Origin: a phage
Strand: one strand, 5' to 3'
Assembly: GCA_027263115.1 (NCBI GenBank)
Contig: GCA_027263115.1_3656.1
Length of the DNA: 64,000 bases
In this document: one piece after another, positions 2,541-21,597 of the stretch
How positions within the stretch are numbered: position 1 is the first letter of the stretch
Layout of the letters: every line of letters begins with the position of its first letter
Program-made: the position numbers and the translations under genes
Notes under the pieces: model-generated
Told to the model about the DNA's origin: nothing
Seen by the model: only the letters and a program-made list of their open reading frames with translations
Databases searched by the model: none

Positions 2541-2850
2541 TATTTTAAGTTATCAGGTTGCCAGAGATCAGGAGGATTTCTAAAATGGATTTCCTCCTTT
2601 TGATATTTTACCTACCAGGATATTTTAAAATCCTTAGAAAATCAGAAAATGGATCGAAAACTAAAATGGATTTTTCAGAGCAGGCACGACGAGATGAACC
2701 ACTCATCCTATCGTCTGCACCATATTCCAGACCACCATTACAGATTTCCCGCACATGCTCACACCCTTCTACTAGAACTTCCCCCACTTACCCTTGACCT
2801 TTTATAGTAATAATCCAACCACTACCTTGAAGTTGTGGCGCAGCTTTCCA

Positions 2851-2938
2851 AGTACTCGATCTGTTTTTCGTTTCAAAGATTGAATTTTCTGAAAATTTTT
2901 CTCGATAAATTTCTCAGTACTCGATCTGTTTTTCGTTT
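2851..2938. repeat. direct repeat pair (22 bp AGTACTCGATCTGTTTTTCGTTT x2) in ORF-poor T-rich segment
   Basis: Identical copies at about 2851-2873 and 2916-2938, surrounded by related tttcgtttt / aaatggattt motifs. Confidence 0.6.
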
Positions 2939-3554
2939 TCTGAATCTGATTTTCTGGAAATCGTTCCGGCTCTCGACCTGAAATTTTTGGGGACGAAATC
3001 GATTTTTCGTTTTCAGAAATGGATTTTTAAAATTTCTATATGGGAATATTTTAGTGGATACTATTTTATAGGAAATTGTTACGGAGGGTAATTAGCGTGC
3101 TAATTAAATTTATTAAATGCGAGGAGTTCTCATTTAGAATTTTGAATGATAATCATTCTCGTTTGCAGAATAACGGGCAGGCCCGGTGATTGTCTCCCGG
3201 CCCCTACTGCCCCGGCTTGTTATTATAGTAACACACAGGACAAAGAAAGCAAGAAGTTTTTGCATAAATTTTTAGACGATAATGATAATCGTTCTCATTT
3301 CATGCAGCGCCCATCCCCGGTGGTTGTCTCCCCCGTCACCGGTGCCTGCCGTCCTTTCGATAGGTATATTTTGCCACCTGGCGGGGCCGCTGTCAACACT
3401 TTTCAAAAAAATTTCTAACCTGATGCGCTGACCGCTGCAACCTGGCGGGGCCAGCCTGGCAGGGCCTAACTGACCAGGTAGGAGAGAATGAAGGCTTGCA
3501 AACCTGGTGGGCCTATGCTATAGGATAGGTAACAATTGAAGAGGAGGTACAAAA

Positions 3555-3731
3555 ATGGAAGGTAATATGATCCCCCTGGAAAATGTAGCTATTAATGACG
3601 CTGAGGCTATCGCCCTGGTTGAAAAGGCTATGGCGGGAGCGTTGGAACATAAAGAAGAGTACGAAAAAATGATGGTTAACCTGGCAGGGGCGGCGGCTGG
3701 AGAATTCTACCCAAAAAATAATTTTAACTAA
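3555..3731 (+). CDS. small hypothetical protein (58 aa)
   Basis: ATG after GAGGAGG; below track cutoff; position confirmed relative to downstream ORF 3817. Confidence 0.5.
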   Translation: MEGNMIPLENVAINDAEAIALVEKAMAGALEHKEEYEKMMVNLAGAAAGEFYPKNNFN

Positions 3732-3734
3732 TGG

Positions 3735-3763
3735 TTGACAGCTCGGACAGTTCTTGTTATTCT
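3735..3763 (+). promoter_or_regulatory. sigma70-type promoter TTGACA-N17-TATTCT
   Basis: -35 consensus, moderate -10, upstream of ORF 3817. Confidence 0.45.
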
Positions 3764-3816
3764 TATCCTCGCAAGGTGAACAACACCACACTAATTAACA
3801 GAGAGGATAAAAAATC

Positions 3817-4014
3817 ATGAACGCCTACGGAATTAAAGTACGTCGCAACACTCGCCAGGTGGTCACCAATCAAGTGATTTGCCGGGTGGATGTAACCATC
3901 AACAACGGGCAAGGCCTTTATAAATTTCGTCGCGGTCATAGCTATACCCTGCAACAGCTTAACCGTTGCGCCCTGACAAAAGGTCAGATCAACCACTGGT
4001 TTAATAAAAAATAA
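3817..4014 (+). CDS. hypothetical protein
   Basis: 65 aa, SD AGAGGA upstream. Confidence 0.55.
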   Translation: MNAYGIKVRRNTRQVVTNQVICRVDVTINNGQGLYKFRRGHSYTLQQLNRCALTKGQINHWFNKK

Positions 4015-4026
4015 TGTTGACATATG

Positions 4027-4055
4027 GTCTGACACAAAATACACTGAAATCGCAA
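4027..4055 (+). promoter_or_regulatory. sigma70-type promoter TTGACA-N17-TACACT
   Basis: Hexamers upstream of ORF 4078. Confidence 0.45.
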
Positions 4056-4077
4056 AAGACACTAAGAGGATAAAATC

Positions 4078-4476
4078 ATGAAAACCACTACCTTTAATTT
4101 TGATAATGCGGACTTTTCTTTTTCTGATGTCAAGAACTGCCGCCGTGATCGTGGATTTTACAAGGCTTATAATCTGGTGGGCCTGGACGATGACAATAAT
4201 TTGCACGAAGTAGCTGAGATCCGGTATTATGCCGCCGCCAGTGGTAACACTCACTACTGCGTGTTTTGGATTCACGACAACAAGAACAATAAGTACGGTT
4301 ATACTGGCGGCAAGGCGAGCGGTCACGGTTACGATAAAGCTAACGCAGCACTTGAGAGTGCATTAAATGCTATGGGGATCACTGCCGACGGCTGGATCTA
4401 CGAAGAAGAGTTTTTGTCGGCACTTGCTGACCACCTGGGCTATAAAAAGCACATTGTGACATGCGCCCACGAATAA
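4078..4476 (+). CDS. hypothetical protein
   Basis: 132 aa, SD AAGAGGA upstream. Confidence 0.6.
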   Translation: MKTTTFNFDNADFSFSDVKNCRRDRGFYKAYNLVGLDDDNNLHEVAEIRYYAAASGNTHYCVFWIHDNKNNKYGYTGGKASGHGYDKANAALESALNAMGITADGWIYEEEFLSALADHLGYKKHIVTCAHE

Positions 4477-4482
4477 AAATCA

Positions 4483-4510
4483 TTGACACGCTGCAAAATT
4501 TAAGTAAACT
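4483..4510 (+). promoter_or_regulatory. promoter-like TTGACA-N16-TAAACT followed by leader hairpin
   Basis: Consensus -35, weak -10; GC hairpin GGCGGGG...CCCGCC then CA-rich leader. Confidence 0.4.
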
Positions 4511-4558
4511 AGACACAAAAGGCGGGGATGTTTCCCGCCAGCACAAAGGAAAAAGATC

Positions 4559-4954
4559 ATGAATAAGAACGTACGCCGCATCATGAACGAACTGGCAAAC
4601 GATGAAAAAATTATTGACATGCATTTATTCAACATTTGCCGCCGTTGTGTAACATATAACAACCGCGCCGCAAAAGCGCGTGAGATGAATGCGAAAGGCA
4701 CCTTAAAGCCCTTTCAGGTGGTTGTAAAATCTATAACCAGTGCAGCAGGCCAGGCGCATGACCACAACAACGAGAGCGCTAATATTGATCCGTCTTACGT
4801 AATGAAACGGATCCGGACTTGCAAGAATAAAGAGCAGGTGTATAACGTCATAGATTGGCTGGACTCCCTGGGTGATGTGGTTTACAATAGGTTTTCTGCA
4901 GCTATCGAGATCCAGCTTGACAGATTGGACGGGAAAGTACTGAAAACTTACTGA
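4559..4954 (+). CDS. hypothetical protein
   Basis: 131 aa, SD AAAGGAAAAAG. Confidence 0.6.
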   Translation: MNKNVRRIMNELANDEKIIDMHLFNICRRCVTYNNRAAKAREMNAKGTLKPFQVVVKSITSAAGQAHDHNNESANIDPSYVMKRIRTCKNKEQVYNVIDWLDSLGDVVYNRFSAAIEIQLDRLDGKVLKTY

Positions 4955-4955
4955 G

Positions 4956-5001
4956 TTTATTTTTAGATGGCCTTGACTCCAGGGCCATCAATAAAGTAAA
5001 C
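4956..5001. repeat. 46-bp intergenic repeat element, copy 1 (TTTATTTTTAGATGGCCTTGACTCCAGGGCCATCAATAAAGTAAAC)
   Basis: Near-identical copies at 5575-5620 and 9310-9355; contains ATGGCC/GGCCAT inverted repeat and TTGACT box. Confidence 0.7.
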
Positions 5002-5033
5002 TAACCACAGTTGAGCGGAAAGGGGGCTTAAAG

Positions 5034-5153
5034 ATGAGTACTACACGCCAGCACACAAAGGTAACTATTATCGTTTGCATCATTGGTTACATCCTGGCGC
5101 AAATGTTGATGGGTAGCGCCAACGGTATCGCAAAATTTTTCTTAAACTTTTAA
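5034..5153 (+). CDS. small hydrophobic peptide (39 aa)
   Basis: ATG after AAGGGGG; single TM-like helix; paralog-like to the 11513 peptide (shared S-x-NGI motif). Confidence 0.4.
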   Translation: MSTTRQHTKVTIIVCIIGYILAQMLMGSANGIAKFFLNF

Positions 5154-5181
5154 TTGACAAGCTAACTTAGATCAGTATACT
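5154..5181 (+). promoter_or_regulatory. sigma70-type promoter TTGACA-N16-TATACT
   Basis: Hexamers followed by GGGAA/TTCCC leader hairpin. Confidence 0.5.
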
Positions 5182-5231
5182 AAACACATAAACGGGAAAA
5201 CTTCCCAGAACACACAAAAGGAGAAAACACC

Positions 5232-5573
5232 ATGACTACTATGACCGCCGCAGAAAAAGCTATGCAGATCGCCGCGCTGAAAAAACAGATCGCAGACCTT
5301 GAGAATAAGATCGATAACTTTGAAATCGACGAGGACAAGTACGACGAAAACTATGATGAATGGTTAGACGAGATCTACGGCGAAATTATGATCGGAAACA
5401 TTTCTTTTCTTCCGTCGCGTATCCTCAAGGAGCTAGATCCTATCGCTTACCGCTGCGGATTTAGCGACTACATCGACAGCTTGGATATTGAGGACGATGA
5501 AGAATACCAGGAATTGCATACAGAGCTTGAAGAAGTGAAAGAAGAGCTTGCAGAACTGGAAGAAAACGAGTAA
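5232..5573 (+). CDS. highly acidic coiled-coil protein (DNA-mimic candidate)
   Basis: 113 aa, SD AAGGAG; roughly one third Asp/Glu with heptad-like N-terminus. Confidence 0.6.
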   Translation: MTTMTAAEKAMQIAALKKQIADLENKIDNFEIDEDKYDENYDEWLDEIYGEIMIGNISFLPSRILKELDPIAYRCGFSDYIDSLDIEDDEEYQELHTELEEVKEELAELEENE

Positions 5574-5574
5574 A

Positions 5575-5620
5575 TTTATTTTTAGATGGCCTTGACTCCA
5601 GGGCCATCAATAAAGTAAAC
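5575..5620. repeat. 46-bp intergenic repeat element, copy 2
   Basis: Identical to copy 1 over about 46 bp. Confidence 0.7.
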
Positions 5621-5662
5621 TTTATACTGTTAACACTGAACTAATGCATAGGAGTTAAAACC

Positions 5663-5908
5663 ATGGCAGCACTAATCACCAAATATTATGCCCCTACCAA
5701 CACCAAAAGCGCCCGTATCATGGTAAAAGGCTTCGGACGTAAAAAGGTTTACACCTGGGATTATGCCTTAGACACGGAAGACAACTACACCAACGCGATG
5801 ACCGATTTTATTAATGACCTGAACACGCGGATCTTGACAAATTATCAAATTACCGATATTGCCTATATAGGGGAAGGCGGGATCTGTTTTGTCGGTATCG
5901 TCAAATAA
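5663..5908 (+). CDS. hypothetical protein
   Basis: 81 aa, SD TAGGAG. Confidence 0.55.
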   Translation: MAALITKYYAPTNTKSARIMVKGFGRKKVYTWDYALDTEDNYTNAMTDFINDLNTRILTNYQITDIAYIGEGGICFVGIVK

Positions 5909-5983
5909 GCTGGTTTTTCGGTGGTCCTGGTAGCAGGGCCATCTATAAAGATAGTTTATCAACACAATGAAAGGAGAAAGTAC

Positions 5984-6331
5984 ATGATCAGCGGGGCTAG
6001 TTTTATTATTGGCGCTATTGCTACGGCTTTAATTGTAAACAAGATCCAGGATAAAAAGGAAAGTACCGCCCTTGCAGAATATCCATTTTGGACATTCAAC
6101 GATAATGAAGATTATATTATAAAGTATAAAAATAAAGAAGGTGACCAAGTAACACCGCGACCGATCCCGGCTTACAAAATGCAGGAAACACTGTACCGCC
6201 TGGAAGCGGGGGGCGCAAAAATTGTAGACTTTTGGGGATACGATCACACAGATCAGGAAGTTATAAAGCGCCGTATCCGGGCTATTCAGGCCAATATTGA
6301 AGTTAGCAAGGGGGGAATATATGAAGATTAA
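5984..6331 (+). CDS. hypothetical membrane-anchored protein
   Basis: ATG after AAAGGAGAAAG (start trimmed from track ORF 5921); N-terminal hydrophobic helix. Confidence 0.55.
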   Translation: MISGASFIIGAIATALIVNKIQDKKESTALAEYPFWTFNDNEDYIIKYKNKEGDQVTPRPIPAYKMQETLYRLEAGGAKIVDFWGYDHTDQEVIKRRIRAIQANIEVSKGGIYED

Positions 6332-6518
6332 TTTTGAGAAGATTGTAAAGCGATCTCATGATTCCGAAGATCTGCCGGAACGACGCCAGCGTAACAATAA
6401 ACTGAATAAGCCAAAAAGATTTGGGAAGATCTGGCGAAATCATTATGATCGTAAACTGCCGGGCCTGCTTTTGGAACGTGAACGACAGGCGGAACGATAC
6501 CGCCACAAAGACAAATAG
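6321..6518 (+). CDS. small basic protein
   Basis: ATG after AAGGGGGG, overlaps previous gene by 11 nt; Arg/Lys-rich. Confidence 0.45.
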   Translation: MKINFEKIVKRSHDSEDLPERRQRNNKLNKPKRFGKIWRNHYDRKLPGLLLERERQAERYRHKDK

Positions 6519-6525
6519 CAACCAA

Positions 6526-6553
6526 CGCCCCGCCATTGTGCGGGGCTTTTTAT
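6526..6553 (+). terminator. rho-independent terminator
   Basis: GCCCCG-loop-CGGGGC hairpin followed by TTTTTATTT. Confidence 0.6.
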
Positions 6554-6698
6554 TTCTATCCCGCCGATAGCGCCCCTGGTTGGCCCTACAAGCGCCATAA
6601 AGGCCCCTACCTATGCAATCCCCTTTATTAACCTGAAAACATCGCCCAGGGCCGTTTTATGGTGTTAAAATATTATTGATAGTTATTTTATTTAAAGC

Positions 6699-6727
6699 TT
6701 GACACCTTGGAATAGTCCGGATATACT
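6699..6727 (+). promoter_or_regulatory. sigma70-type promoter TTGACA-N17-TATACT
   Basis: Hexamers upstream of ORF 6763. Confidence 0.5.
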
Positions 6728-6762
6728 AACCACATCAAAGCAAGAAGGAAGGAGTAAACGCC

Positions 6763-7032
6763 ATGCGTAAATTAAAAAATTTTGATAAAGTTGATATTGT
6801 CCTGAATAATTTTTACTACTGCAATAACAAGGCCGTTTGGTGGCGTGATAGTTCCACCGATAAAGTCAAGGCGCGCTTTCTCCAGGGGCACTGGCAAGGC
6901 CGCCCAGTGATTAAAATCATGGGGCAATTGGTAGCGTTTAAAAATTGCCGCCGTGTTGATGACGTTGAAGAGATTTTAAACATTTTGCGCCACAATAATT
7001 TAAAAATAGTGTTGACAAGTAAATCTCAATAA
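6763..7032 (+). CDS. hypothetical protein
   Basis: 89 aa, SD GGAAGGAG. Confidence 0.55.
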   Translation: MRKLKNFDKVDIVLNNFYYCNNKAVWWRDSSTDKVKARFLQGHWQGRPVIKIMGQLVAFKNCRRVDDVEEILNILRHNNLKIVLTSKSQ

Positions 7033-7039
7033 GTATAAT
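7012..7039 (+). promoter_or_regulatory. sigma70-type promoter TTGACA-N16-TATAAT
   Basis: Consensus hexamers, then leader hairpin GGCGG...CCGCC. Confidence 0.55.
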
Positions 7040-7096
7040 TAAAAACACAGGCGGGAAAACTTACCGCCACTAACAAAGAAAACAGGAGAAAATATC

Positions 7097-7720
7097 ATGA
7101 CCACCGTTAACATTACCACAGGTTGCAATTTATCTTTCGACGTGCTGACCGACGAACAAAAAGAAAAAGCTATTGAAATGGTCCGCGAAAGAGAAGAACA
7201 CAGCGGAGAGGATTTTTTCGCAGAAAGTGTAATTGAATATTATAAAGAACAAGTTTTTCCAGAGTACGGCCTTGAAGATACCGATGTACATTGGTCCGGC
7301 TTTTGGTGCCAGGGTGACGGCGCGTCAATCAGTGCTGAAAACGTGGATTTAGAAAAATTCTTGCGTAAAGTAAAGGCCCTGACCAAGTTCCGATCAATTC
7401 GTCACTTGTTTGGCACAATGCACGATGGCGAGTTATCAGCCAGTATTGAACGCGACAAGTACAGCCATTACAGCCATGAAAACACTGTAAGCGGATACAT
7501 TGATACCACCTGGCTAGATCTGACCGCCAAACAAGAAAACAAAGTGGAAGACCTGGAAGAGCTGATCACCGAGACGGTACGGGAGCTATCCCGCAAGGTT
7601 TACGTAGACCTGGAGGAGGCCTATCTAGAACAGTTCACTACCGAAAACCTGATCGGCCTTATTGAGGCCAATGATTGGCGGTTTGATGTGGATGAATATG
7701 GAGAGATGAGTTTTTCATAA
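7097..7720 (+). CDS. acidic hypothetical protein (207 aa)
   Basis: Largest early ORF; SD CAGGAG; Asp/Glu-rich. Confidence 0.65.
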   Translation: MTTVNITTGCNLSFDVLTDEQKEKAIEMVREREEHSGEDFFAESVIEYYKEQVFPEYGLEDTDVHWSGFWCQGDGASISAENVDLEKFLRKVKALTKFRSIRHLFGTMHDGELSASIERDKYSHYSHENTVSGYIDTTWLDLTAKQENKVEDLEELITETVRELSRKVYVDLEEAYLEQFTTENLIGLIEANDWRFDVDEYGEMSFS

Positions 7721-7728
7721 ATAAAGTG

Positions 7729-7756
7729 TTGCAATAATCTAAAAACCTGCTATATT
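7729..7756 (+). promoter_or_regulatory. promoter TTGCAA-N16-TATATT with leader hairpin
   Basis: Followed by GGGGCAA-loop-TTGCCCC hairpin and CA-rich leader. Confidence 0.45.
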
Positions 7757-7809
7757 AAAACTCAAGGGGGCAAGACGTTTGCCCCACACAAAACAAAGAG
7801 GAAAACATT

Positions 7810-8190
7810 ATGAAAAACACTACTAAAGCTATTGACACCGTTATGTTTAACCTGGTTACCTTTCGCGAGGATATGAAAGATCTTCCACGTGAAACAGTGT
7901 GCGATCACATTGAAAACTATCGCAAACTAATCAAAGAGTTGCCTTTAAAACGTGACCAGTATGCGGCTAACGCTATGCTCAACGCCATGATCAAAAAGAT
8001 GATTCAGTGTGATTTAACCCTGGCCTATGATTATGCAGGTGGTCGTTTTGCAGTATACAATCAGCCCGTGCCTGGTATGGGCACCACCGAAGAATTGCAC
8101 GCGCTCAATCTAAAACAAGACGTGTGGGATAGTATGCCCCGCGTGGTGGTGTGGGCAGAAAGCGGAAAGATTTACGGCGATAATTTTTAA
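7810..8190 (+). CDS. hypothetical protein
   Basis: 126 aa, SD AAGAGGAAAA. Confidence 0.6.
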   Translation: MKNTTKAIDTVMFNLVTFREDMKDLPRETVCDHIENYRKLIKELPLKRDQYAANAMLNAMIKKMIQCDLTLAYDYAGGRFAVYNQPVPGMGTTEELHALNLKQDVWDSMPRVVVWAESGKIYGDNF

Positions 8191-8200
8191 TCAGGTAACA

Positions 8201-8226
8201 GGCGGCATATTTGCCGCCTTATTGTT
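8201..8226 (+). terminator. rho-independent terminator
   Basis: GGCGGCA-loop-GCCGCC hairpin followed by TTATTGTT. Confidence 0.55.
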
Positions 8227-8254
8227 AAACAGAACTGCAAAAGAGGTACATAGA

Positions 8255-8626
8255 ATGGAATTTATTATTTTGGCCGTATTAGTTGCCTTGTTTAACGCCT
8301 GGATCGCTGGCAAGATGGGTAGATCCGCCTTTTTATGGTTTATTATATCTATTTTCCTGGGGGTGGTTTCAACTATTGTACTTGTTATCCTTGCAATTGT
8401 TGACAAAGGTGATAATAGAAAGGGTAAAGTATTTTCCGACCTGTATGACGCGCAAACATTTGTCAACGCCTATTATAGTGATCTTCCAGTCTCCCTACGC
8501 TGCAGCCTTGCACAACAGGTTTTCGATGAAGCTAAAACCAGAGATCACGCCCATGAGATTTGTTTAACTGAGGCGGATCGCCTATTTGAGAGGAATAGAA
8601 AATATGTGGGCCAGCCGTTTAAATAA
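8255..8626 (+). CDS. hypothetical membrane protein (two predicted TM helices)
   Basis: ATG after AAAGAGGTA (start trimmed from track ORF 8222). Confidence 0.55.
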   Translation: MEFIILAVLVALFNAWIAGKMGRSAFLWFIISIFLGVVSTIVLVILAIVDKGDNRKGKVFSDLYDAQTFVNAYYSDLPVSLRCSLAQQVFDEAKTRDHAHEICLTEADRLFERNRKYVGQPFK

Positions 8627-8849
8627 TACCACGTTAATTAATCCCTTTGATGAAGATTTGAAGCCAGCCGCCTGGCGTGATGGATTCAATAACGAACGCT
8701 TTATTTTCAGGCCTGATCTTAAGGAATTTTATAACAATGGATCGAACAACGACAGAGATAATTTTTCTTGTGATGTGCGTGGTGATGGTACTCCTGGGGG
8801 CCATTGTAAACCACGTCACTACTACCAGGATGAAAGGGGGAGACGATGA
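8604..8849 (+). CDS. hypothetical protein
   Basis: ATG after GAGAGGAATAG, overlaps previous gene by 23 nt. Confidence 0.4.
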   Translation: MWASRLNNTTLINPFDEDLKPAAWRDGFNNERFIFRPDLKEFYNNGSNNDRDNFSCDVRGDGTPGGHCKPRHYYQDERGRR

Positions 8850-8965
8850 CAACCAAGGATAAGCCCCGCACCGATAAGGTGCGCCGGGTTATGGTATGGC
8901 TTGAGATCATCGCCCTTGAAATATTGTTAGGCGTAGGGATGTATTTTATCGCTGTAAGTAACTGA
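8846..8965 (+). CDS. small hydrophobic peptide (39 aa)
   Basis: ATGA overlap with previous stop, SD GGGGGAG, single TM-like helix. Confidence 0.4.
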   Translation: MTTKDKPRTDKVRRVMVWLEIIALEILLGVGMYFIAVSN

Positions 8966-8969
8966 TAAC

Positions 8970-9012
8970 GGCCCCCGATCCCTGGGGGCCTAACTTTTTA
9001 AAATTTTTTTTC
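8970..9012 (+). terminator. rho-independent terminator
   Basis: GGCCCCC-loop-GGGGGCC hairpin followed by long T-rich run. Confidence 0.6.
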
Positions 9013-9022
9013 TCCCTGAGTG

Positions 9023-9052
9023 TTGCAATCCGATCCAGAATATGGATAATAA
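9023..9052 (+). promoter_or_regulatory. promoter-like TTGCAA-N18-TAATAA
   Basis: Shares ATATGGATAATAA core with the 10186 promoter; followed by leader hairpin. Confidence 0.4.
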
Positions 9053-9106
9053 TAATCAACGGGGAGCTAATCCCCACCAACACAAAAACCAGAAAGGAGA
9101 AACAAA

Positions 9107-9307
9107 ATGAGCAACAATATCCGCGTTATTAACTTCAAAAAAGAAGAAAAAATTGCCGTGCTGATTGACGGTCAAGAAATCTTCAAGGGCTATTATGAAG
9201 ATCATCAAACGGCGATTAGTATCACTCGCGTGATTGGTTACCATAATTTTTACCCCCAAGGCGCTGAGGCGGCGGTTAAACGAATCAAAGAGATTGTAGG
9301 CCTGTAA
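9107..9307 (+). CDS. hypothetical protein
   Basis: 66 aa, SD AAAGGAGAAA. Confidence 0.55.
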   Translation: MSNNIRVINFKKEEKIAVLIDGQEIFKGYYEDHQTAISITRVIGYHNFYPQGAEAAVKRIKEIVGL

Positions 9308-9309
9308 AA

Positions 9310-9355
9310 TTTATTTTTAGATGGCCTTGACTTCAGGGCCATCAATAAAGTAAAT
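9310..9355. repeat. 46-bp intergenic repeat element, copy 3
   Basis: Two mismatches relative to copies 1 and 2. Confidence 0.65.
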
Positions 9356-9391
9356 TTAAACCCTGTTAAAAGACCACGCAGTTAACAAGGA

Positions 9392-9700
9392 GTGATAGAC
9401 ATGTTTATCCAGGCTAATAATCTTTATTTCTTTGATGGTCAGATCGTAGATGGTGTGGAAGTGGAGATCACCGGGTGCCCTGGCGGTCAGGCTATGACTT
9501 TTCGGAATAATGCCTTTGATGATTCTCATATCGTTATGAGAATGGAAGTTACGAAGCTGGACGACAAGAAAACACTTATTGACTATTCTGTGAAAGATCA
9601 TCCAGACTACCACATGATCTATGGTGATTTGTGCGTTGTTGACCGTGACAAGGTGGGCGGCATTGTGATCGCTATTGTGAACGATGTTTTCTCAAACTAA
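9392..9700 (+). CDS. hypothetical protein
   Basis: 102 aa, SD AAGGAG. Confidence 0.6.
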   Translation: MIDMFIQANNLYFFDGQIVDGVEVEITGCPGGQAMTFRNNAFDDSHIVMRMEVTKLDDKKTLIDYSVKDHPDYHMIYGDLCVVDRDKVGGIVIAIVNDVFSN

Positions 9701-9717
9701 TTTCAGCAGGTGATTTT

Positions 9718-10068
9718 ATGAAAATAAAACTATATTACCTTAATGAGCTTAACCCCCTTGCCCAGGTCCGCGCCATAGCTAATACCTTGATTTGTGAGAA
9801 ATCTGTATATTGTGTTGAGCTTAACGCCATGCGTGAACGTCTCAAAGGTGGTTACTTTGACATCCATACTGCAATCAACGGCCTGAATATGGAATTTATA
9901 CGCTTACGTAACAGCCGCTGGAATCTGGCAAGAATGGAACAAGATCCGGCCTACCTTCGTAAGCTGGTTATTGAAAATCATCTGATGTTTAATGCCGAGG
10001 GTGATTATTACCATTTTCACCGCAGACGCTGGTACCGTGGCGGCAATACAGGCAAGAATGCAAAATAA
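9718..10068 (+). CDS. hypothetical protein
   Basis: 116 aa ORF following previous gene. Confidence 0.5.
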   Translation: MKIKLYYLNELNPLAQVRAIANTLICEKSVYCVELNAMRERLKGGYFDIHTAINGLNMEFIRLRNSRWNLARMEQDPAYLRKLVIENHLMFNAEGDYYHFHRRRWYRGGNTGKNAK

Positions 10069-10103
10069 GGCCCCTAGCAGGGCCTGCAGCAATATAATCA
10101 CAT

Positions 10104-10137
10104 AAAGGCCATGCAACCGCATGGCCTTTATTATTTT
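10104..10137 (+). terminator. rho-independent terminator
   Basis: 11-bp stem AAAGGCCATGC/GCATGGCCTTT, then ATTATTTTGG. Confidence 0.65.
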
Positions 10138-10185
10138 GGCGTTACAACGGCATACGGGGCGCTTAAAAAATTTTTAAAGAAGTAC

Positions 10186-10215
10186 TTGCATCATTCCCGA
10201 CAATATGGATAATAA
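10186..10215 (+). promoter_or_regulatory. promoter-like TTGCAT-N18-TAATAA
   Basis: Paralog of the 9023 promoter, followed by GGGGG/CCCCC hairpin. Confidence 0.4.
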
Positions 10216-10270
10216 GAGTTGTCGAGGGGGAGGCCCCCAATCGTTGACCAGATAGATAGGAGTTAAAATC

Positions 10271-10555
10271 ATGGCTATTGTTACCGCTGGCGATGTAGTA
10301 GAAATGGAAGCAAAATACTTAAAAGCGGGTATGCACATCCTACGGAATGATCAAGAGTTATTATTAACGATGGTTGACTATAATCCCGGCCAGGATTATC
10401 CAAGCATCGACTACTTTTTTGAGTATGTTGATGAAGAGTTGAAAGAGGATGAGGCATATTGCGGTGAGTTCTGCAACTTCTTTTGTCCTGATGAGGTTGT
10501 AAAGGTTATTTATCAACCTGGCGTACCTTTCCCACTGCACGCTATCAATAAATAA
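10271..10555 (+). CDS. hypothetical protein
   Basis: 94 aa, SD TAGGAG. Confidence 0.6.
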   Translation: MAIVTAGDVVEMEAKYLKAGMHILRNDQELLLTMVDYNPGQDYPSIDYFFEYVDEELKEDEAYCGEFCNFFCPDEVVKVIYQPGVPFPLHAINK

Positions 10556-10609
10556 ACCTGGCGGGGCCGAAAAGGCCCCAATTATGAAAATAAAGAGAGG
10601 TAAATCATC

Positions 10610-10843
10610 ATGATGGAACAAATTAAACGCGCTGAGGCTATTAATGGCAATGTGATCTATTTTGTCAGCAAAAACGAAAAAGGCGTACCATATGCGGCGG
10701 TAATAGTACAACCTGACGGCGATTATTGGTTTACTGTGTACGGCGCTTATTCTTTTGGGCGTCCAGTGCATGATAAAATTTTGAAAGTAGCGAACCCTAC
10801 CGGGAAGAATATCACAGCAGAAAAATTTTTTGAAAATAGTTGA
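10610..10843 (+). CDS. hypothetical protein
   Basis: 77 aa, SD AGAGAGGTAAA. Confidence 0.55.
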   Translation: MMEQIKRAEAINGNVIYFVSKNEKGVPYAAVIVQPDGDYWFTVYGAYSFGRPVHDKILKVANPTGKNITAEKFFENS

Positions 10844-10867
10844 CATGACCATATAAGACTGTAATAT
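10840..10867 (+). promoter_or_regulatory. sigma70-type promoter TTGACA-N16-TAATAT
   Basis: Hexamers then leader hairpin GGGGC/GCCCC. Confidence 0.5.
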
Positions 10868-10918
10868 ATAAATCAAAGGGGGCAACAAGCCCCACCAACC
10901 ACAAAGAGGATAAAAATC

Positions 10919-11098
10919 ATGGCTATTATTGCAAAGACTGAGATCGTAGGCTTAGATTCTATTCTACTCGCATATGAGGAAGCTATAGAAATGTATGTGG
11001 TTTCCTACGGTGAATATATCCGTGAATATAAATCTATTGATCTAGCTTTTGAATGTTATATTCGCCAGGTCAATAAAGCATATGATGATTATCGTTAA
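10919..11098 (+). CDS. small hypothetical protein (59 aa)
   Basis: ATG after AAGAGGATAAAAA; below track cutoff. Confidence 0.5.
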   Translation: MAIIAKTEIVGLDSILLAYEEAIEMYVVSYGEYIREYKSIDLAFECYIRQVNKAYDDYR

Positions 11099-11189
11099 AA
11101 TAGTTTGACAACAAACAACCATCTAACAAAGCATAATACATAAGGTGGTAGAATGATCCGCCACCTGGAACAAAGAAGAGGTAAACACC

Positions 11190-11435
11190 ATGAAAAGCAA
11201 TAAAGGTTATAACGGTTACAAAAACAAAACTCATTGGAATGTAAGCCTTTGGATTAATAACGATGAGTCATTGTACCGGTTGGCCCAAGGCTTTATTAAC
11301 GCCAATGCTAATCGTAATGATGCGGCGCGGGATATGATGCTTTTTCTGGAGCTAACCGGACAAGATAAGACCCCGGACGGCTTCAAGTACAGCACTACGG
11401 CGATCCGTGCCGCGATGGTTGGAATGAAACACTAA
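11190..11435 (+). CDS. hypothetical protein
   Basis: 81 aa, SD AAGAGGTAAA; preceded by GGTGG...CCACC leader hairpin. Confidence 0.55.
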   Translation: MKSNKGYNGYKNKTHWNVSLWINNDESLYRLAQGFINANANRNDAARDMMLFLELTGQDKTPDGFKYSTTAIRAAMVGMKH

Positions 11436-11512
11436 AAGCATATAGCCGCCTTACCCTGGGGCCGCTGCTACGGCCCCATGAATAAGGTTACTAACAGAAG
11501 AGAATAAACACC

Positions 11513-11617
11513 ATGAAACAAAAATTAATTGATGCTGTGATCCTGGTTATTGCCTTAGGTATTGGCCTGATTGCAACCATGGCTAATGTGATCTTGTCTT
11601 CCAACGGTATCGGGTGA
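11513..11617 (+). CDS. small hydrophobic peptide (34 aa)
   Basis: ATG after leader hairpin and AGAAGAGAATAAA; TM-like; shares SSNGI motif with the 5034 peptide. Confidence 0.4.
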   Translation: MKQKLIDAVILVIALGIGLIATMANVILSSNGIG

Positions 11618-11626
11618 GGTTGACAA

Positions 11627-11842
11627 ATGATCACTAACAAAACAGGAAAAACAGAATTTTTACGCAACTTACAGATCGGCAAGCCTGAGATCTGGCATTG
11701 CACTAAAACACCACGTGACGAAATGAAAGACTTCACCGCCACGCTGCAACGGGTAAAGATATCCATCACGCAGAAAAAGGCCTTGCTAGTGGTGGAAGGT
11801 GAGATCCCCCAAACCGTTGTTATAGTTGAGCGTACAGCATAG
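11627..11842 (+). CDS. hypothetical protein
   Basis: 71 aa, weak SD GAGGT. Confidence 0.45.
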   Translation: MITNKTGKTEFLRNLQIGKPEIWHCTKTPRDEMKDFTATLQRVKISITQKKALLVVEGEIPQTVVIVERTA

Positions 11843-11933
11843 TTTAATTTATAGAGATACCTGAAAATTAACCAATAAAGCATAAACAGGCGGTTACCGC
11901 CGCCTTAAACGTAGCAGAAAGAGGATAGACACA

Positions 11934-12218
11934 ATGAAAAAGATGATCGCAGTGGTTGCCCTAGTTGTTGGACTTAATGCGCCTGTAATGGCTAAAGAGC
12001 TGGCAAAAGAGGTTAATCTAACGGATATTCATGCCGTCAATCAAATCGGGGTTACTTATCGCTTATGCCTTGCCGCTAAAACTTTTAATGACGGCACAAC
12101 AGAGTACTACGGATTCGAGGGTATCCGGTGCGGTGAGCTTGCTCGCGACCTTAAGGAAGATCCAGATCTGGAAGATCTACCCATCACCGTAAACGGTAAA
12201 GCTTACGTAAACCGTTAA
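11934..12218 (+). CDS. secreted/periplasmic small protein
   Basis: 94 aa, SD AAGAGGA; N-terminal signal-peptide-like MKKMIAVVALVVGLNAPVMA. Confidence 0.6.
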   Translation: MKKMIAVVALVVGLNAPVMAKELAKEVNLTDIHAVNQIGVTYRLCLAAKTFNDGTTEYYGFEGIRCGELARDLKEDPDLEDLPITVNGKAYVNR

Positions 12219-12220
12219 CC

Positions 12221-12355
12221 ATGAGAAAGATAATCATCACCTTGGGGATTGTGGTAGCAATACTGGCGCTCTTTCCCCTTATGGTTAGGTATGTGCTGAT
12301 CAGTGTTGTCCTGATAGTCAGCGATCTATTGGAAACGGTTGGCACCTTGTTTTAA
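12221..12355 (+). CDS. small hydrophobic peptide (44 aa)
   Basis: Starts 3 nt after previous stop, no clear SD, strongly hydrophobic. Confidence 0.3.
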   Translation: MRKIIITLGIVVAILALFPLMVRYVLISVVLIVSDLLETVGTLF

Positions 12356-12368
12356 AGAGCGATAAAAA

Positions 12369-12560
12369 ATGAATATCGAACAAGTTAGAAAGGTATTAGC
12401 GGTACTGCGTTATCATAATCATAGAAAGGTCATAGACGATCCTGATTATGTTGATTCAAGTCTAGAAGAGGATACACTACAAGCCATAAGTAACATGCAA
12501 GAATTGCTAAAGCGCATGACAGAGAAAAACAGACCGGACTACATAGGCGAAAAAATATAA
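12369..12560 (+). CDS. hypothetical protein
   Basis: 63 aa ORF in gene array. Confidence 0.5.
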   Translation: MNIEQVRKVLAVLRYHNHRKVIDDPDYVDSSLEEDTLQAISNMQELLKRMTEKNRPDYIGEKI

Positions 12561-12577
12561 TATTTATAAACTACAAA

Positions 12578-12607
12578 ACAGGGCTTGCAATGGCCCTGTT
12601 TTTGTTA
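12578..12607 (+). terminator. rho-independent terminator
   Basis: ACAGGGC-loop-GCCCTGT hairpin followed by TTTTTGTT. Confidence 0.65.
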
Positions 12608-12687
12608 TACTTATTCTACGGCAGGCACCTGGCGACGGGGGGAGACAATCACCGGGCCTGCCTGTCATACAAGAACTATAAAAACCG

Positions 12688-12716
12688 TTGACATCTGCCA
12701 TGGGGTGGGGTAACAT
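12688..12716 (+). promoter_or_regulatory. promoter TTGACA-N17-TAACAT
   Basis: Followed by GGGCA/TGCCC hairpin and CA-rich leader. Confidence 0.45.
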
Positions 12717-12770
12717 TTATCTTGAAGGGGCAAAAGTGCCCACACAACAACCAGGAGAGAGGAAAACATT

Positions 12771-13043
12771 ATGTCAAGCTGGATTAATCAAGAAGTCGAA
12801 TCACGTTTTAATGCTATATGGGATCTCATCGAAAAAGAGGACGGAACATCAAGCCCCTACCTCAACAATTTGGAATTCCATTTTGTGGAAGCGATGAACG
12901 CAGAACATGATCACGAAGGTGGCGCGGATGAGTTCGCTAAAGGTTATGGCTTTAACAATGCCAACGAAATGATCGAGGCGGTTGTACTCCAGGCTGAGGA
13001 AGATTATCAATTAAAAACGCTTGAATTCTGCCGCCGTAAGTAA
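12771..13043 (+). CDS. acidic hypothetical protein
   Basis: 90 aa, SD AGGAGAGAGG. Confidence 0.6.
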   Translation: MSSWINQEVESRFNAIWDLIEKEDGTSSPYLNNLEFHFVEAMNAEHDHEGGADEFAKGYGFNNANEMIEAVVLQAEEDYQLKTLEFCRRK

Positions 13044-13103
13044 TAAGATAATGACACGGGCCAAAAGGCCCACTAATCAGAACCACACAAAGGGAGAAAG
13101 AAA

Positions 13104-13322
13104 ATGACAACCCGTAAAATTAAAGTTGTTTGCATTGAATCGACTGGGGGCGCTTTTGTAGTTGGTCAGGAATATAATGCGGTTTTAATGGGTACGGATT
13201 GGAAGGTTAAAGGCCTTAATGGTTACGAGTACGGCACTACTTGCGGCTTGCGTGGTCGAATCGGATACGTGAGTTTAGACAATAAAGAAAAATTTGTTTT
13301 CGACACCCTTGTGAGTAAATAG
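13104..13322 (+). CDS. hypothetical protein
   Basis: 72 aa, SD AAGGGAGAAAG; preceded by GGGCC/GGCCC hairpin. Confidence 0.55.
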   Translation: MTTRKIKVVCIESTGGAFVVGQEYNAVLMGTDWKVKGLNGYEYGTTCGLRGRIGYVSLDNKEKFVFDTLVSK

Positions 13323-13400
13323 CATGAATTGCTAAAGACTGATCTGCGAACTGCTGTATTATCAACTAATCAAAACGAACCACATAAAGAGGTAAACATC

Positions 13401-13664
13401 ATGAAACGTCTTGATCAGCTCAAACTAGTTCAGTACATGGCCTACAGAATTCTTGAAGTCCAAAAAGGTAGCAAAAAAGAGGTTTGCGAGAAAGCTTATA
13501 AGATCTTTACCCGCAAAAAAGATGACTGGATGCTACGCCAGACCAAAAAGGCTGACATCTTGGGGTACCTGGAAGAAGAGATCCGCCTTGAAGAGCAAGA
13601 AGAGATCCGCCGCAGTGAAGCAGATTATCAGGCAGCTTGGGAAAACTGGATGAATAACAAATAA
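13401..13664 (+). CDS. hypothetical protein
   Basis: ATG after AAGAGGTAAA (start trimmed from track ORF 13329); Lys/Glu-rich. Confidence 0.5.
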   Translation: MKRLDQLKLVQYMAYRILEVQKGSKKEVCEKAYKIFTRKKDDWMLRQTKKADILGYLEEEIRLEEQEEIRRSEADYQAAWENWMNNK

Positions 13665-13728
13665 TACAACAAGTTACGGTCAGGGGGCAATAAAGCCCCT
13701 TGATCACATAAAAATTATGCTATCCTTA

Positions 13729-13757
13729 TTGACAAGGATCGGCAGTTTTGCTATATT
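13729..13757 (+). promoter_or_regulatory. sigma70-type promoter TTGACA-N17-TATATT
   Basis: Hexamers upstream of ORF 13807. Confidence 0.5.
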
Positions 13758-13806
13758 CTTTTTTAAAGGGAAGTTGTAAGAAAATTAACTAAGAGGTAAA
13801 AACACC

Positions 13807-14226
13807 ATGAACATTAAATCTAATAATCCGGCATATAGCTTTGATAACGCTTTTTGTCACGGTCCGGCGGCGAAAGGATTCGAAATCGATGGTAAACTAA
13901 TTATTGTCAATGTTGACGGGGAAGAGGTTGCAGTATATCCGGTGGCAGACGTAAAAAGCCGTTTACAATGCCGCATTGATGTTACCGCCTATCAGCTTGA
14001 TCCGGTCCGCATAGTTGCCCTGGTCCTGGAAGAAGAAATTAAAGCCATGCACCATAGCAACAGGTTTATTGGTGACGCTCAGGATAATATGAAGGTGTGC
14101 CGCCATAAAGTTAATGAAGTGCTTAAAGAGTACGGCTATAAAGATCTTATGATCAAACGTGATGAAAAATTCCGGTACCGTAACGACCTGGCAAATCGAA
14201 TCTATGAAATATACGAATCATTATAA
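13807..14226 (+). CDS. hypothetical protein
   Basis: 139 aa, SD AAGAGGTAAAAA; last gene of rightward early array. Confidence 0.6.
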   Translation: MNIKSNNPAYSFDNAFCHGPAAKGFEIDGKLIIVNVDGEEVAVYPVADVKSRLQCRIDVTAYQLDPVRIVALVLEEEIKAMHHSNRFIGDAQDNMKVCRHKVNEVLKEYGYKDLMIKRDEKFRYRNDLANRIYEIYESL

Positions 14227-14244
14227 TTTTTTAACTGAATTATC

Positions 14245-14270
14245 AAGGGGCTTAGGCCCCTTTCTTTTTG
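14245..14270 (+). terminator. rho-independent terminator closing the early array
   Basis: AAGGGGC-loop-GCCCCTT hairpin followed by TCTTTTTG. Confidence 0.65.
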
Positions 14271-14877
14271 TCTGATCTTCCCCCTACCATAAACGGCCCT
14301 ACCTGGCAAGTGGAATAATTGACGAGCCATCAACCCCACACACTGTACAAATATACATGTAAAATAACTATTGCATAACTTTTCATTGTGTGGTAGCAGG
14401 GCTATTTTTACCCGTTTTTCCTTCCAAAATTGCACGTAATGCAGCTATTGCACAAAATTTAACCTGATGCATATCTTCAGTGTCTTGTCAACAACTAAAA
14501 ATCTTTATAAGTCATGCACTTACATAACCACAAAAGCGTGCTCTACGTGAAAAATCGAGTATAACTATAGCCGCCAGATCTCAGAATTTACGTACGCTCA
14601 CCATTCTATAGTCTGCTAAGTATTTATTCCAACCATAGAATAACGGAATAGTCAATACCTGCATAAAATAATTATTCGTGTAAACTGCATAACATAAATC
14701 AGCTTAGGTGTCAACATTTTTCGTAAACAGTCTGAAATTATCACGATGAGTTATCATAAACAGAGAAATCTTTAGTCGTCTAATGTTTACTGTACGTTAC
14801 TATACTAACTGAAATCATTAGATGACTAATAGAAAGATAAGAAATAATTAACAATACAATTATTTTATCTGTAACAA

Positions 14878-15165
14878 TAAGGCAACTATGCAAACGAATG
14901 GCATGGCGCGACGGAGTCGCGACATAATATAAAAGCAGTAACCATCACCCCCGTGATAGTTTGTCTGCAATCTATTAATCAGATCATAGTTGCCTTGTAT
15001 TTAGTTAATCATGACATAACAAGCAAGGCAACTATAGATCTGCTAATAGTTGCCCTGCTTTTATATTATGTCATAGGAACGCCCGAAGGGGTGACCTAGT
15101 CACCTGGCATAGCCAGCGAAAGATTATTAACTTGGTAATAGTTATCATGCAAACGAATGGCATGG
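14878..15165. repeat. nested palindromic region: 18-bp inverted repeat (about 14921-14938 vs 15055-15072), 19-bp direct repeat ATGCAAACGAATGGCATGG x2, AGGCAACTAT/ATAGTTGCC inverted copies
   Basis: Reverse complements and direct copies read directly in the sequence; no ORF with a ribosome-binding site. Confidence 0.65.
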
Positions 15166-15179
15166 CTTATCATCTCTGT

Positions 15180-15420
15180 GTAAACAGTCAATCATGTAAA
15201 CTATTAGATATGTAAACAGTAAAGGGCGTGAACAGTAAGCGAGGGAATAGTAATAGCGTGAATAGTGACAGCGTAAACAGTGACAGCGTAAACAGTCAGG
15301 CATGTCAATTATGTCATATTGTGTCACCATTATGTCACTATTGTGTCACCAGTATGCCCAGTATGTCAATTGAGTCTAAAGTGTCAAAGGTGTCAGACAA
15401 GTTTTTCTCCTCTTTGTCAA
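15180..15420. repeat. tandem short-repeat arrays (GTAAACAGT family incl. 15-mer TGACAGCGTAAACAG x2; then 22-bp TTATGTCAYTATTGTGTCACCA x2 with further TGTCA units)
   Basis: Direct reading; track ORFs here are low-complexity artefacts of the repeats. Confidence 0.7.
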
Positions 15421-16866: not shown

Positions 16867-17082
16867 TCAGTCCAGCGGTTCATCCTCTACTTCACTGAAA
16901 TCAATGTTCATGGTCTCTTCCCAACCATCGATCTCAGCACAAGAGTGGAGTTCTTTAGGGTTTACTCCCAAAGCCTCAGCAACAGAGTCTATATTTAACA
17001 CCTCTGGCAGGTATGATTCATCGAATTCAAGGTAAATCAGGCCACGAGTGTTGTCAGCTCCACCAAATATCTCTATCTTCAT
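16867..17082 (-). CDS. hypothetical protein (distal end of leftward block)
   Basis: 71 aa, ATG preceded by GAGGAG on minus strand; N-terminus MKIEI like several upstream paralogs. Confidence 0.5.
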   Translation of the reverse strand: MKIEIFGGADNTRGLIYLEFDESYLPEVLNIDSVAEALGVNPKELHSCAEIDGWEETMNIDFSEVEDEPLD

Positions 17083-17203
17083 AAAATCTCCTCTGGGAAT
17101 GAAAGTGTGAACAGGGTTTTATACGTTCTAATGCACAGGAATTATACACGTTTGCCTCTTCAGGCCATGCTTTAGCATGAGGAACCTGTGTGGGCTCGGT
17201 GCT

Positions 17204-18411: not shown

Positions 18412-18433
18412 CTCAAATCTCCTTCATAGATAG

Positions 18434-18464
18434 TAAAAAGAGGGGCCCAAGCCCCCCCTCTTTG
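18434..18464 (-). terminator. hairpin terminator (G/C-rich stem, T-run on minus strand)
   Basis: AGAGGGGG...CCCCTCT stem between genes 18468..18773 and 18085..18411. Confidence 0.5.
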
Positions 18465-18467
18465 TCA

Positions 18468-18773: not shown

Positions 18774-18801
18774 AGTAAGAGTCTCCTTATGTTGTTTTAA
18801 A

Positions 18802-21593: not shown

Positions 21594-21597
21594 ATTA

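Follow-up and report, generated by a model that had tools for sequence, protein, structure and literature searches.

The 64,000-nt stretch analysed here (the window; contig GCA_027263115.1_3656.1) comes from an rV5-like coliphage (Vequintavirus). Between 3500 and 14300 it contains a block of ~32 small plus-strand genes, the ORFan block. Ten of these genes are each preceded by a copy of the same compact unit, which we call a cassette: a sigma-70-type promoter, a short hairpin, a leader and a Shine-Dalgarno (SD) sequence. The region from 4000 to 13600 matched 289 phage records. Escherichia phage FFH2 ranked first (96%), ahead of rV5 and further Vequintavirus genomes, and in each of these genomes it was the minus strand that matched. 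A bidirectional terminator at ~14245 closes the block, and a long minus-strand block converges there. Upstream of the ORFan block and in the same direction lie a repeat-rich non-coding stretch and, before that, replication genes. Judged by their promoters, the ten cassette-driven genes are probably early genes. Nine of the ten products tested had no Pfam family above the curated cut-off; the sole product with such a match was that of 11190-11435 (+) (DUF7249, E = 7e-13).

We found that all ten gene starts named in an earlier reading of the letters alone (the sequence-only reading) had a promoter, a hairpin, a leader, an SD sequence and an ATG, as that reading had proposed. The promoters are TTGACA-like, with spacers of 16-18 nt and a -10 box of the form TAnnnT, and they score 8-12 of 12. 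In gene order, the gap between the -10 box and the hairpin is 10, 12, 10, 10, 10, 12, 11, 8, 11 and 8 nt. Stem length is 5-8 bp, and the 5' arm is G-rich and the 3' arm C-rich. The 8 nt past the stem hold 0-3 T (zero in 7/10), and none of the hairpins is terminator-like on the plus strand, confirming the earlier description of a 5-8-bp GC stem with no U tract. The distance from the end of the hairpin to the ATG is 19-32 nt, strong SD included, and the whole unit, from the -35 box to the ATG, measures 79-89 bp. When the predicted transcripts were folded with RNAfold, they had a lone 5'-proximal hairpin, and the remainder, including the SD, was unpaired. Hairpin energies ranged from -4 to -12.6 kcal/mol and whole-leader z scores from -0.4 to -3.6.

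All ten cassettes are on the plus strand. The cassette of gene 4559 (rV5 P194) spans 4483-4561, with the -35 box at 4483-4488, the -10 box at 4505-4510, the hairpin GGCGGGGA-tgt-TTCCCGCC at 4521-4539, a CA/SD leader at 4540-4558 and the ATG at 4559. That of gene 5232 (rV5 P192; 5154-5234) has its -35 box at 5154-5159, its -10 box at 5176-5181, a GGGAA-aac-TTCCC hairpin at 5194-5206 and a leader at 5207-5231 with four ACA motifs. Gene 7097 (rV5 P185; cassette 7012-7099) has a consensus TTGACA-16-TATAAT promoter (7012-7039), a hairpin at 7050-7068 that is weakened in the window phage and is 8 bp in most relatives, and a leader at 7069-7096. For gene 7810 (7729-7812), a TTGCAA-16-TATATT promoter (7729-7756) is followed by the hairpin GGGGCAAG-acg-TTTGCCCC (7767-7785) and a leader at 7786-7809. 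For gene 9107 (9023-9109), the corresponding parts are TTGCAA-16-GATAAT (9023-9050), GGGGA-gctaa-TCCCC (9061-9075) and a leader at 9076-9106. The cassette of gene 10271 (10185-10273) consists of CTTGCA-17-GATAAT (10185-10213), GGGGG-agg-CCCCC (10226-10238) and a leader (10239-10270) that is not CA-rich. Gene 10919 (rV5 P174; 10840-10921) has TTGACA-16-TAATAT (10840-10867), GGGGC-aacaa-GCCCC (10879-10893) and a leader at 10894-10918. The promoter of gene 11190 (cassette 11105-11192), TTGACA-18-AAGCAT (11105-11134), is the weakest of the ten; its hairpin, AGGTGG...CCACCT (11143-11166), has an alternative GGYGG/CCGCC pairing, and its leader is at 11167-11189. Gene 12771 (rV5 P168; 12688-12773) has TTGACA-17-TAACAT (12688-12716), GGGCA-aaag-TGCCC (12728-12741) and a leader at 12742-12770, and gene 13104 (13021-13106) has TTGAAT-17-TAAGAT (13021-13049), GGGCC-aaaa-GGCCC (13058-13071) and a leader at 13072-13103. 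Because the stems vary in length, MAFFT did not bring them into register, and modules were found by a Python descriptor scan instead of a covariance model.

The cassettes are confined to the ORFan block. Ten copies of this main type and four of a second type described below lie within 4483-13106, and the replication-gene block that belongs to this transcription unit contains none. In a census of the block, ten starts had a promoter and a leader hairpin, three or four had the distinct, near-identical 51-nt cassette of the second type with the -35 box as the hairpin loop, and four had a GC hairpin or terminator with no promoter; the remaining genes, apart from a few with a promoter only, were translationally coupled. 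Terminators with U tracts are present inside the block at 6527, 8200, 8970, 10102, 12575 and 14245, resulting in ~six operons. Upstream genes stop directly at or inside the next cassette promoter, with no terminator between, so that a read-through transcript carries each hairpin between two cistrons as well.

We found that promoter and hairpin were coupled more often than expected by chance. Among 31 promoter-like sites on the plus strand (3500-14300), seven were followed by a hairpin with a stem of 5 bp or more that began 5-13 nt past the -10 box (positional base rate 0.069; binomial p = 0.004). Across 200 dinucleotide shuffles, such coupled sites averaged 0.46 and never exceeded 3. The ten stems comprise eight distinct base-of-stem sequences. 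Each 5' arm paired with its own 3' arm in 10/10 copies, compared with a mean of 1.7/10 for permuted arms, and 0 of 10,000 permutations reached 10. The inverted repeat is kept as a structure rather than as a sequence. A scan with Rfam gave only six transfer RNAs (tRNAs) in the window at the gathering score and no family for the cassettes; within 3400-14400 there was a single chance-level match (E = 0.053; 37 bits, with the cut-off at 94).

The hairpins persist across the orthologous loci of eight Vequintavirus genomes (88-96% identity). Compensatory changes were read from per-sequence RNAfold structures and not by formal pair counting (the alignment at 7810 shifts the 3' arm by one column). The 7810 hairpin had an A-U to G-C compensation in three phages, the inner stem of the 4559 hairpin was rebuilt by compensatory changes in MiataMamis, and the 11190 hairpin also had compensatory changes among orthologues. 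Stems at 9107 and 12771 had G-U transitions, and the bulk of the remaining changes fell within loops. The fraction of variable columns was 3% in the -35 box, 8% in the -10 box, 25% in each stem arm, 41% in the loops and 38% in the CA spacer. This variability, lowest in the hexamers, indicates that the promoters are clearly constrained and the stems moderately so.

The leaders have an unusual composition (A 56%, C 19%, G 17.5%, U 7.8%). Other SD-led leaders in the window contain 24.7% U, compared with 7.8% in the cassette leaders (p = 7e-13). The 268 nt of cassette leader contain 23 ACA motifs, a density 4.3 times that of control leaders (shuffle P = 0.026), and ACAAAG is present in 6/10 leaders. 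With the exception of 10271, the ACA tracts are unpaired in minimum-energy folds and lie just upstream of the SD. The sequence-only reading had described a CA-rich spacer in all ten leaders; this held for nine, and failed for 10271 (A+C 0.53, no CA tract). The leaders are also complementary in composition to the R1 region of the host small RNA GcvB, with a mean duplex energy of -12.6 kcal/mol compared with -9.6 kcal/mol for control leaders. Relative to shuffles of the same leaders z was ~0. GcvB targeting is not supported in this phage, as pairing was no better than with shuffled leaders and the complementarity does not go beyond composition. More speculatively, a dozen abundant C/A-rich leaders might titrate, or be targets of, host GcvB/Hfq.

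We found the same design in other phages. The arrangement of promoter, hairpin and SD is found throughout the ORFan blocks of Phapecoctavirus DE16, Justusliebigvirus phi92 (both Stephanstirmvirinae) and Asteriusvirus slurp01, a 348-kb jumbo phage (121Q-like). In these blocks (slurp01 7900-18300, DE16 10000-20500, phi92 14000-22700) there is a cassette before nearly every small gene. The design is also present, more sparsely, in Certrevirus CR8 and DU_PP_I. Hairpins elsewhere include GGCGGCA-atgg-TGCCGCC, GCGGGAA-nnn-TTCCCGC and GGGGAGAA-atga-TTCTCCCC, and the 5' arm was at least 60% purine in 72/84 modules. No such hairpin was found at the promoters of the FFH2 replication block.

We scanned IMG/VR with the exact pattern TTGACA-N16-17-TANNNT-N8-14-GGGAANNNTTCCC. 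The pattern occurred at 49 loci with 38 distinct promoters, on contigs of 30-66% GC, and an SD and start codon followed 32/50 matches. In contrast, 9 loci matched when the two arms of the pattern were exchanged as a control (5 distinct promoters, one locus with an SD), and a control with the same hairpin 30 nt further downstream also gave 9 loci (4 distinct promoters, 0 with an SD). Thus, a purine-first hairpin 8-14 nt past a consensus promoter was ~5 times commoner than either control, indicating that hairpin position and purine-first orientation are general. Loops in IMG/VR favoured TGG, TTG, TGA and CGG.

Cassette homology marks the junctions of insertions, deletions (indels) and gene swaps, both within Vequintavirus and between phage subfamilies. 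YP-6 lacks gene 7097 (7097-7720), and the junction there joins two -35 regions (7006/7719). Gotham, rV5_ev147 and ECO111 lack gene 11190 (11190-11435); in these, two SD leaders are joined (11201/11493). In six phages gene 13104 (13104-13322) is absent, and the junction joins two CCACAnAAAG-SD leaders (13092/13378). The segment 9718-10068 is cleanly absent from Gotham and EcoIv14a. These four (7097, 11190, 13104 and 9718-10068) are dispensable accessory genes. Two replacements begin exactly past a -35 box, at 10845 and 11113. All observed junctions were in promoter or SD/CA parts, and none was in a hairpin. Single genes (7810, 10610, 10919, 11190 and others) recur in DE16, phi92 and slurp01 at 66-92% nucleotide identity, in different order across lineages and each behind a local cassette; several of these cross-lineage blocks of homology start in the leader or at the SD. 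Gene 11190 has the widest spread among other lineages; with slurp01 it shares 85% nucleotide identity. The mutual likeness of the cassettes makes them sites of gene deletion, insertion and exchange.

We suggest that each unit is a self-contained sigma-70 expression cassette, one per small ORFan gene, in which the hairpin stabilizes or insulates the message and the ACA tract enhances its translation. We hold this composite reading with moderate confidence. Host sigma-70 RNA polymerase would read each cassette. Transcription is predicted to start at a C-A step ~7 nt after the -10 box, and the hairpin would then begin 2-6 nt from the 5' end. Such a 5'-proximal hairpin could hinder decay that depends on the 5' end (RppH, then RNase E) and could block scanning by RNase E. 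RNase E is sensitive to a base-paired 5' end and is slowed by it (PMC3997798), and structures in the 5' untranslated region (UTR) are proposed to obstruct its scanning (PMC11194081). The rV5 protein gp11 is a homologue of Srd (PMC3606486), whose T4 counterpart stimulates the action of RNase E on host mRNA (PMC4980113). Together these provide a rationale for 5' protection, which would be relevant if the phage homologue activates RNase E. The purine-rich, T-poor 5' arm may also serve as an initial transcribed sequence that aids escape where the promoter is near consensus. For initial transcribed sequences, purine content and productive yield are correlated, and slow escapers carry T's within the first ~7 bp (PMC5961368). 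An escape-favouring 5' arm would explain why the hairpin is invariably purine-first. In transcripts that read through from upstream promoters, the hairpin between cistrons could act as a barrier to 3' exonucleases or as a folding insulator. The single-stranded ACA-rich tract, which would offer RNase E few sites, could enhance translation or be a standby site for ribosomes. In yifK and dppA, ACA motifs that precede the SD have been proven to act as enhancers (PMC3879156).

The sequence-only reading had offered several roles for the unit, and these fared differently. Stabilization of the 5' end is favoured by the fixed position of the hairpin 8-12 nt past the -10 box, at about +2 to +6 of the predicted transcript, and by its conserved structure. 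Enhancement by the CA tract is favoured, as the ACA-dense, U-poor leaders resemble ACA and C/A-rich enterobacterial enhancers that were defined by experiment (PMC3879156). An insulator or intercistronic role is conceivable, given that upstream genes run into the promoters with no terminator. A leaky terminator on the sense strand is unsupported, since a U tract is lacking and the cassette's own promoter precedes the hairpin. A processing site is unsupported as well. RNase III needs stems longer than 5-8 bp, so that these stems are far too short, and RNase E prefers A/U-rich sites, so that the U-poor flank is a poor substrate. We also considered and rejected a Rho utilization site, because 19-32 nt directly before a strong SD is too short.

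Several observations weigh against the composite reading. Four or five promoter-driven genes in the block have no hairpin (3817, 4078, 6763, 13807 and perhaps 13401); some of the promoter-only starts still have a CA-rich leader. The 10919 hairpin is lost in phage Gotham, and stem arms are just moderately better conserved than their flanks. The CA tract is largely a Vequintavirus feature, much weaker in other lineages and missing from 10271. Its absence or weakness in some hairpin cassettes indicates that the hairpin and the CA tract are separable. The 2-6 unpaired nt at the predicted 5' ends may be too many for full protection. A comparison of sense with antisense stability, together with a count of G-U versus A-C, showed no clear preference (27 versus 34) and is confounded by repeated copies and Certrevirus loci. 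Lastly, one tested stem-loop of a T4-type promoter-early stem-loop (PeSL) reduced expression of a downstream lacZ as much as a strong terminator (PMC2839356), and an attenuating effect here is thus conceivable.

This last result speaks for a PeSL-type attenuator, in which the hairpin would damp transcription both from upstream and from its own promoter and so limit build-up along the tandem array. The G-run/C-run stem-loop in question, from RB49/phi1, cut lacZ as much as rrnB T1 did (PMC2839356), and the entry of upstream genes into cassette promoters without an intervening terminator would fit such a role. However, the sense strand has no U tract (0/10 terminator-like), the hairpin lies past its own strong, highly conserved promoter and would throttle that output too, and canonical U-tract terminators already partition the block. 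We consider attenuation quite unlikely. A selected function in recombination, with the cassettes as portable homology and the hairpin promoting exchange as a DNA cruciform or pause site, would account for the deletion and replacement junctions in -35 boxes or SD/CA leaders and for the shuffling of single genes among Vequintavirinae, Stephanstirmvirinae and Asteriusvirus behind local cassettes. In addition, one RB49 crossover was mapped inside a stem-loop (PMC2839356). In the window, however, the junctions avoid the hairpin, which is the least similar part between copies, and homology alone does not account for the fixed distance from the -10 box, the purine-first orientation or the enrichment in IMG/VR. 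Recombination as the selected function seems unlikely to us.

The hairpins might instead act on the other strand. Together with the complement of the A-rich start region, they could be antisense terminators that stop read-through from the convergent minus-strand block, which meets the ORFan block at ~14245. Five of the ten (4539, 5207, 7785, 9081 and 10893) are terminator-like on the minus strand, but the antisense strand of the remaining five is not rich in U, and pre-hairpin sequences of DE16, phi92 and slurp01 (for example 'ttaccacgta' and 'gttttacatcgaga') complement to no U tract. A-richness after a -10 box is expected anyway, and the tie to promoter and SD would be left unexplained. We judge this very unlikely. 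We give a still slimmer chance to a site for a trans-acting factor, be it the operator of a DNA repressor, an RNA hairpin bound by a protein (boxB/N- or RegA-like) or a C/A-rich target of GcvB/Hfq. Near-identical hairpins shared by many DE16, phi92 and slurp01 copies (the GGCGGCA and GCGGGAA forms above) would suit such a factor, as would the loop preferences in IMG/VR, the several window loops that are A-rich like boxB, and the compositional complementarity to GcvB R1. The ten stems and loops in the window all differ, which argues against sequence-specific recognition; the tolerance of G-U pairs argues against a DNA operator; no boxA stands beside any cassette; and the GcvB pairing does not exceed that of shuffled leaders. 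Least probable of all is that the hairpin has no function and the copies are simply descendants of one duplicated cassette. Paralogy is visible between 5181-5218 and 7040-7077 (74% identical), and in further families likewise. Yet diverged stems still pair with their own partners, orthologues carry compensatory changes, and position and orientation are enriched across viral contigs that range from 30 to 66% GC.

As far as sequence features go, the cassettes are a variant of T4-type PeSLs, and five sequence-level PeSL features were found in them. PeSLs have been described in the T4-like phages RB49/phi1, PST/T4 and nt-1/KVP40 and are excised as encapsidated mini-circles (PMC2839356, PMC4122927). 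Like PeSLs, the cassettes are a repeated unit of ~80-100 bp in which a sigma-70 promoter close to consensus is combined with a stable stem-loop (G-run/C-run) and with the SD and start codon of a small ORFan; the copies cluster in a plastic, ORFan-rich region, and close relatives differ by indels and replacements at them. The second cassette type in the window (4953, 5572 and 9307), with its stem-loop over the -35 box, matches a PeSL subclass already described. Unlike PeSLs, the cassettes belong to Vequintavirinae, and the design recurs in Stephanstirmvirinae and Asteriusvirus, none of which are T4-like. In PeSLs the stem-loop lies within or upstream of the promoter and is a terminator or attenuator, whereas in the main class here it lies 8-12 nt downstream of the -10 box and would be transcribed into its own 5' UTR. 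The main class also has no U tract and has an added ACA-rich, U-poor leader.

Other known elements share some of these properties. The 5' stabilizers of the ompA and papA 5' UTRs (Emory 1992 and Bouvet & Belasco 1992, as cited in PMC3997798) likewise have a short stable hairpin near the 5' end, a single-stranded segment and a strong SD; the effect to be expected is protection from 5'-end-dependent decay by RppH and RNase E. They differ from the cassettes, which form a multi-copy family tied to the sigma-70 promoters of one phage region and whose predicted 2-6 unpaired nt are at the upper limit for such protection. The same differences separate the cassettes from phage T7 late (gene 10) leaders, which carry a 5' hairpin. 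Like the enhancers of the GcvB targets yifK, dppA and gltI (PMC3879156), the leaders have ACA/CA-rich clusters that are single-stranded, flexibly spaced and just upstream of the SD. Unlike them, the leaders have no specific GcvB complementarity beyond composition, and the tract belongs to the Vequintavirus lineage, some hairpin cassettes lacking it. Intrinsic terminators are also short, GC-rich intergenic stem-loops, but the hairpins here have no sense U tract, lie downstream of a promoter and are always purine-first, in contrast to the 20 listed rV5 terminators, which occur in both orientations. A lambda nut site consists of boxA and a boxB hairpin with a conserved purine-rich pentaloop. In some copies the cassettes resemble it, with a GC stem of 5-6 bp and an A-rich loop of 4-5 nt shortly after an early promoter; in contrast, their loops are unconserved (tgt, aac, acg, gctaa, agg, aacaa and others) and there is one copy per gene, not per operon. 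A search for boxA in 3500-14300 found only CGCTCTT at 12267, inside a gene, and none beside the cassettes.

The rV5 genome paper lists nine of these promoters, with only 7 nt past the -10 box, and leaves the hairpins unmentioned. GenBank records of relatives annotate only promoters, ribosome-binding sites and true terminators. Our literature search found no paper applying the PeSL concept to rV5-like phages and no transcriptome or start-site study of a Vequintavirinae phage. As each component is of a known kind, the value of the finding lies in the combination and its breadth and not in a new mechanism.

The second cassette type is a 51-nt unit at 4953-5003, 5572-5622 and 9307-9357 on the plus strand, with a degenerate copy at 5907-5957. 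It consists of a T-run, the hairpin GGCC-TTGACTCCAG-GGCC and a TAAACT -10 box. The -35 box of its promoter (TTGACT-18-TAAACT) forms the hairpin loop, making a combined terminator-like and promoter element. This unit is labelled 'terminator' in the annotation of phage Murica. The block also contains GC hairpins that lack a promoter. One, GGGGCC-gaaaa-GGCCCC at 10563-10579 (+), has no U tract and separates a stop codon from the next SD; similar hairpins are at 11458-11477 and 11888-11905. These three may be intercistronic barriers or half-cassettes. The GAAAA pentaloop at 10563-10579 is also that of lambda nutR boxB; with no boxA near it, the likeness is probably a coincidence.

The sequence-only reading had also placed the same layout before a minus-strand hpf gene. 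We found an hpf-like gene (rV5 P144) at 22360-22677 (-), with a match to Pfam Ribosomal_S30AE (E = 4e-13) and 42% identity to E. coli HPF (tblastn). It is preceded by a looser cassette (22675-22753, minus strand): TTGACA at 22753-22748, a spacer of 17 nt, TATTAT at 22730-22725, a gap of 8 nt, the hairpin AAGAGAGAG-tta-TTCTCTCTT at 22716-22696, 18 nt more and the ATG at 22677. The promoter, hairpin and spacing were thus borne out, but the stem is of A/G-C/U and not GC composition, and the spacer is not CA-rich. The open reading frame at 18085-18411 (-) was rejected as hpf, having no Pfam match. Minus-strand sites with a promoter and a GC hairpin at 18463 and 36133 were rejected as leader hairpins; they have U tracts and are the rV5 terminators t158 and t109.

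We noted several other features of the window. The non-coding stretch at 2600-3500 contains three repeats of ~47-57 nt with a spacing of 65-74 nt (2842-3027) and several GC-rich palindromes. This stretch is the counterpart of the box marked 'non-coding' on the rV5 map, and it could serve as an origin or in packaging. A 29-nt element, ATAACGGGCAGGCCCGGTGATTGTCTCCC, is present at 3170-3198 and 3316-3334 (+) and, inverted, at 12640-12668 (93% complementarity), so that its copies flank most of the ORFan block. Its core, GAGACAATCACCGGG, also follows a promoter and hairpin in Certrevirus CR8 and DU_PP_I. The element could be a small RNA or a protein-binding site. The six tRNAs form a cluster at 57527-58335 (+) (Rfam RF00005, 30-80 bits).

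More broadly, and only tentatively, the promoter-proximal purine-first hairpin might be a general, unformalized component of sigma-70 early-gene cassettes in phages, serving both as an RNA element suited to promoter escape and to 5'-end protection while the phage induces RNA decay, and as shared homology through which unrelated phages in one cell swap single ORFan genes. Such a plug would consist of a promoter, ~10 nt, a hairpin often with a GGGAA-NNN-TTCCC core, and a ribosome-binding site, and it would span at least four lineages (T4-like, rV5-like, phi92/phAPEC8-like and 121Q-like jumbo phages) and many uncultured viral contigs. For annotation, a hairpin with its purine-rich arm first, 8-14 nt past a -10 box, is a simple, testable feature of phage early genes. 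If our composite reading is true, the cassettes would be natural, compact and transferable expression units of ~85 bp (promoter, 5' stabilizer, enhancer and ribosome-binding site) and would show how large lytic phages secure strong, durable expression of takeover genes. They would extend the PeSL idea of a mobile regulatory cassette past the T4-like phages, as a cross-family currency for ORFan exchange, and would bear on how pools of accessory genes, such as anti-defence and host-takeover genes, are shuffled.

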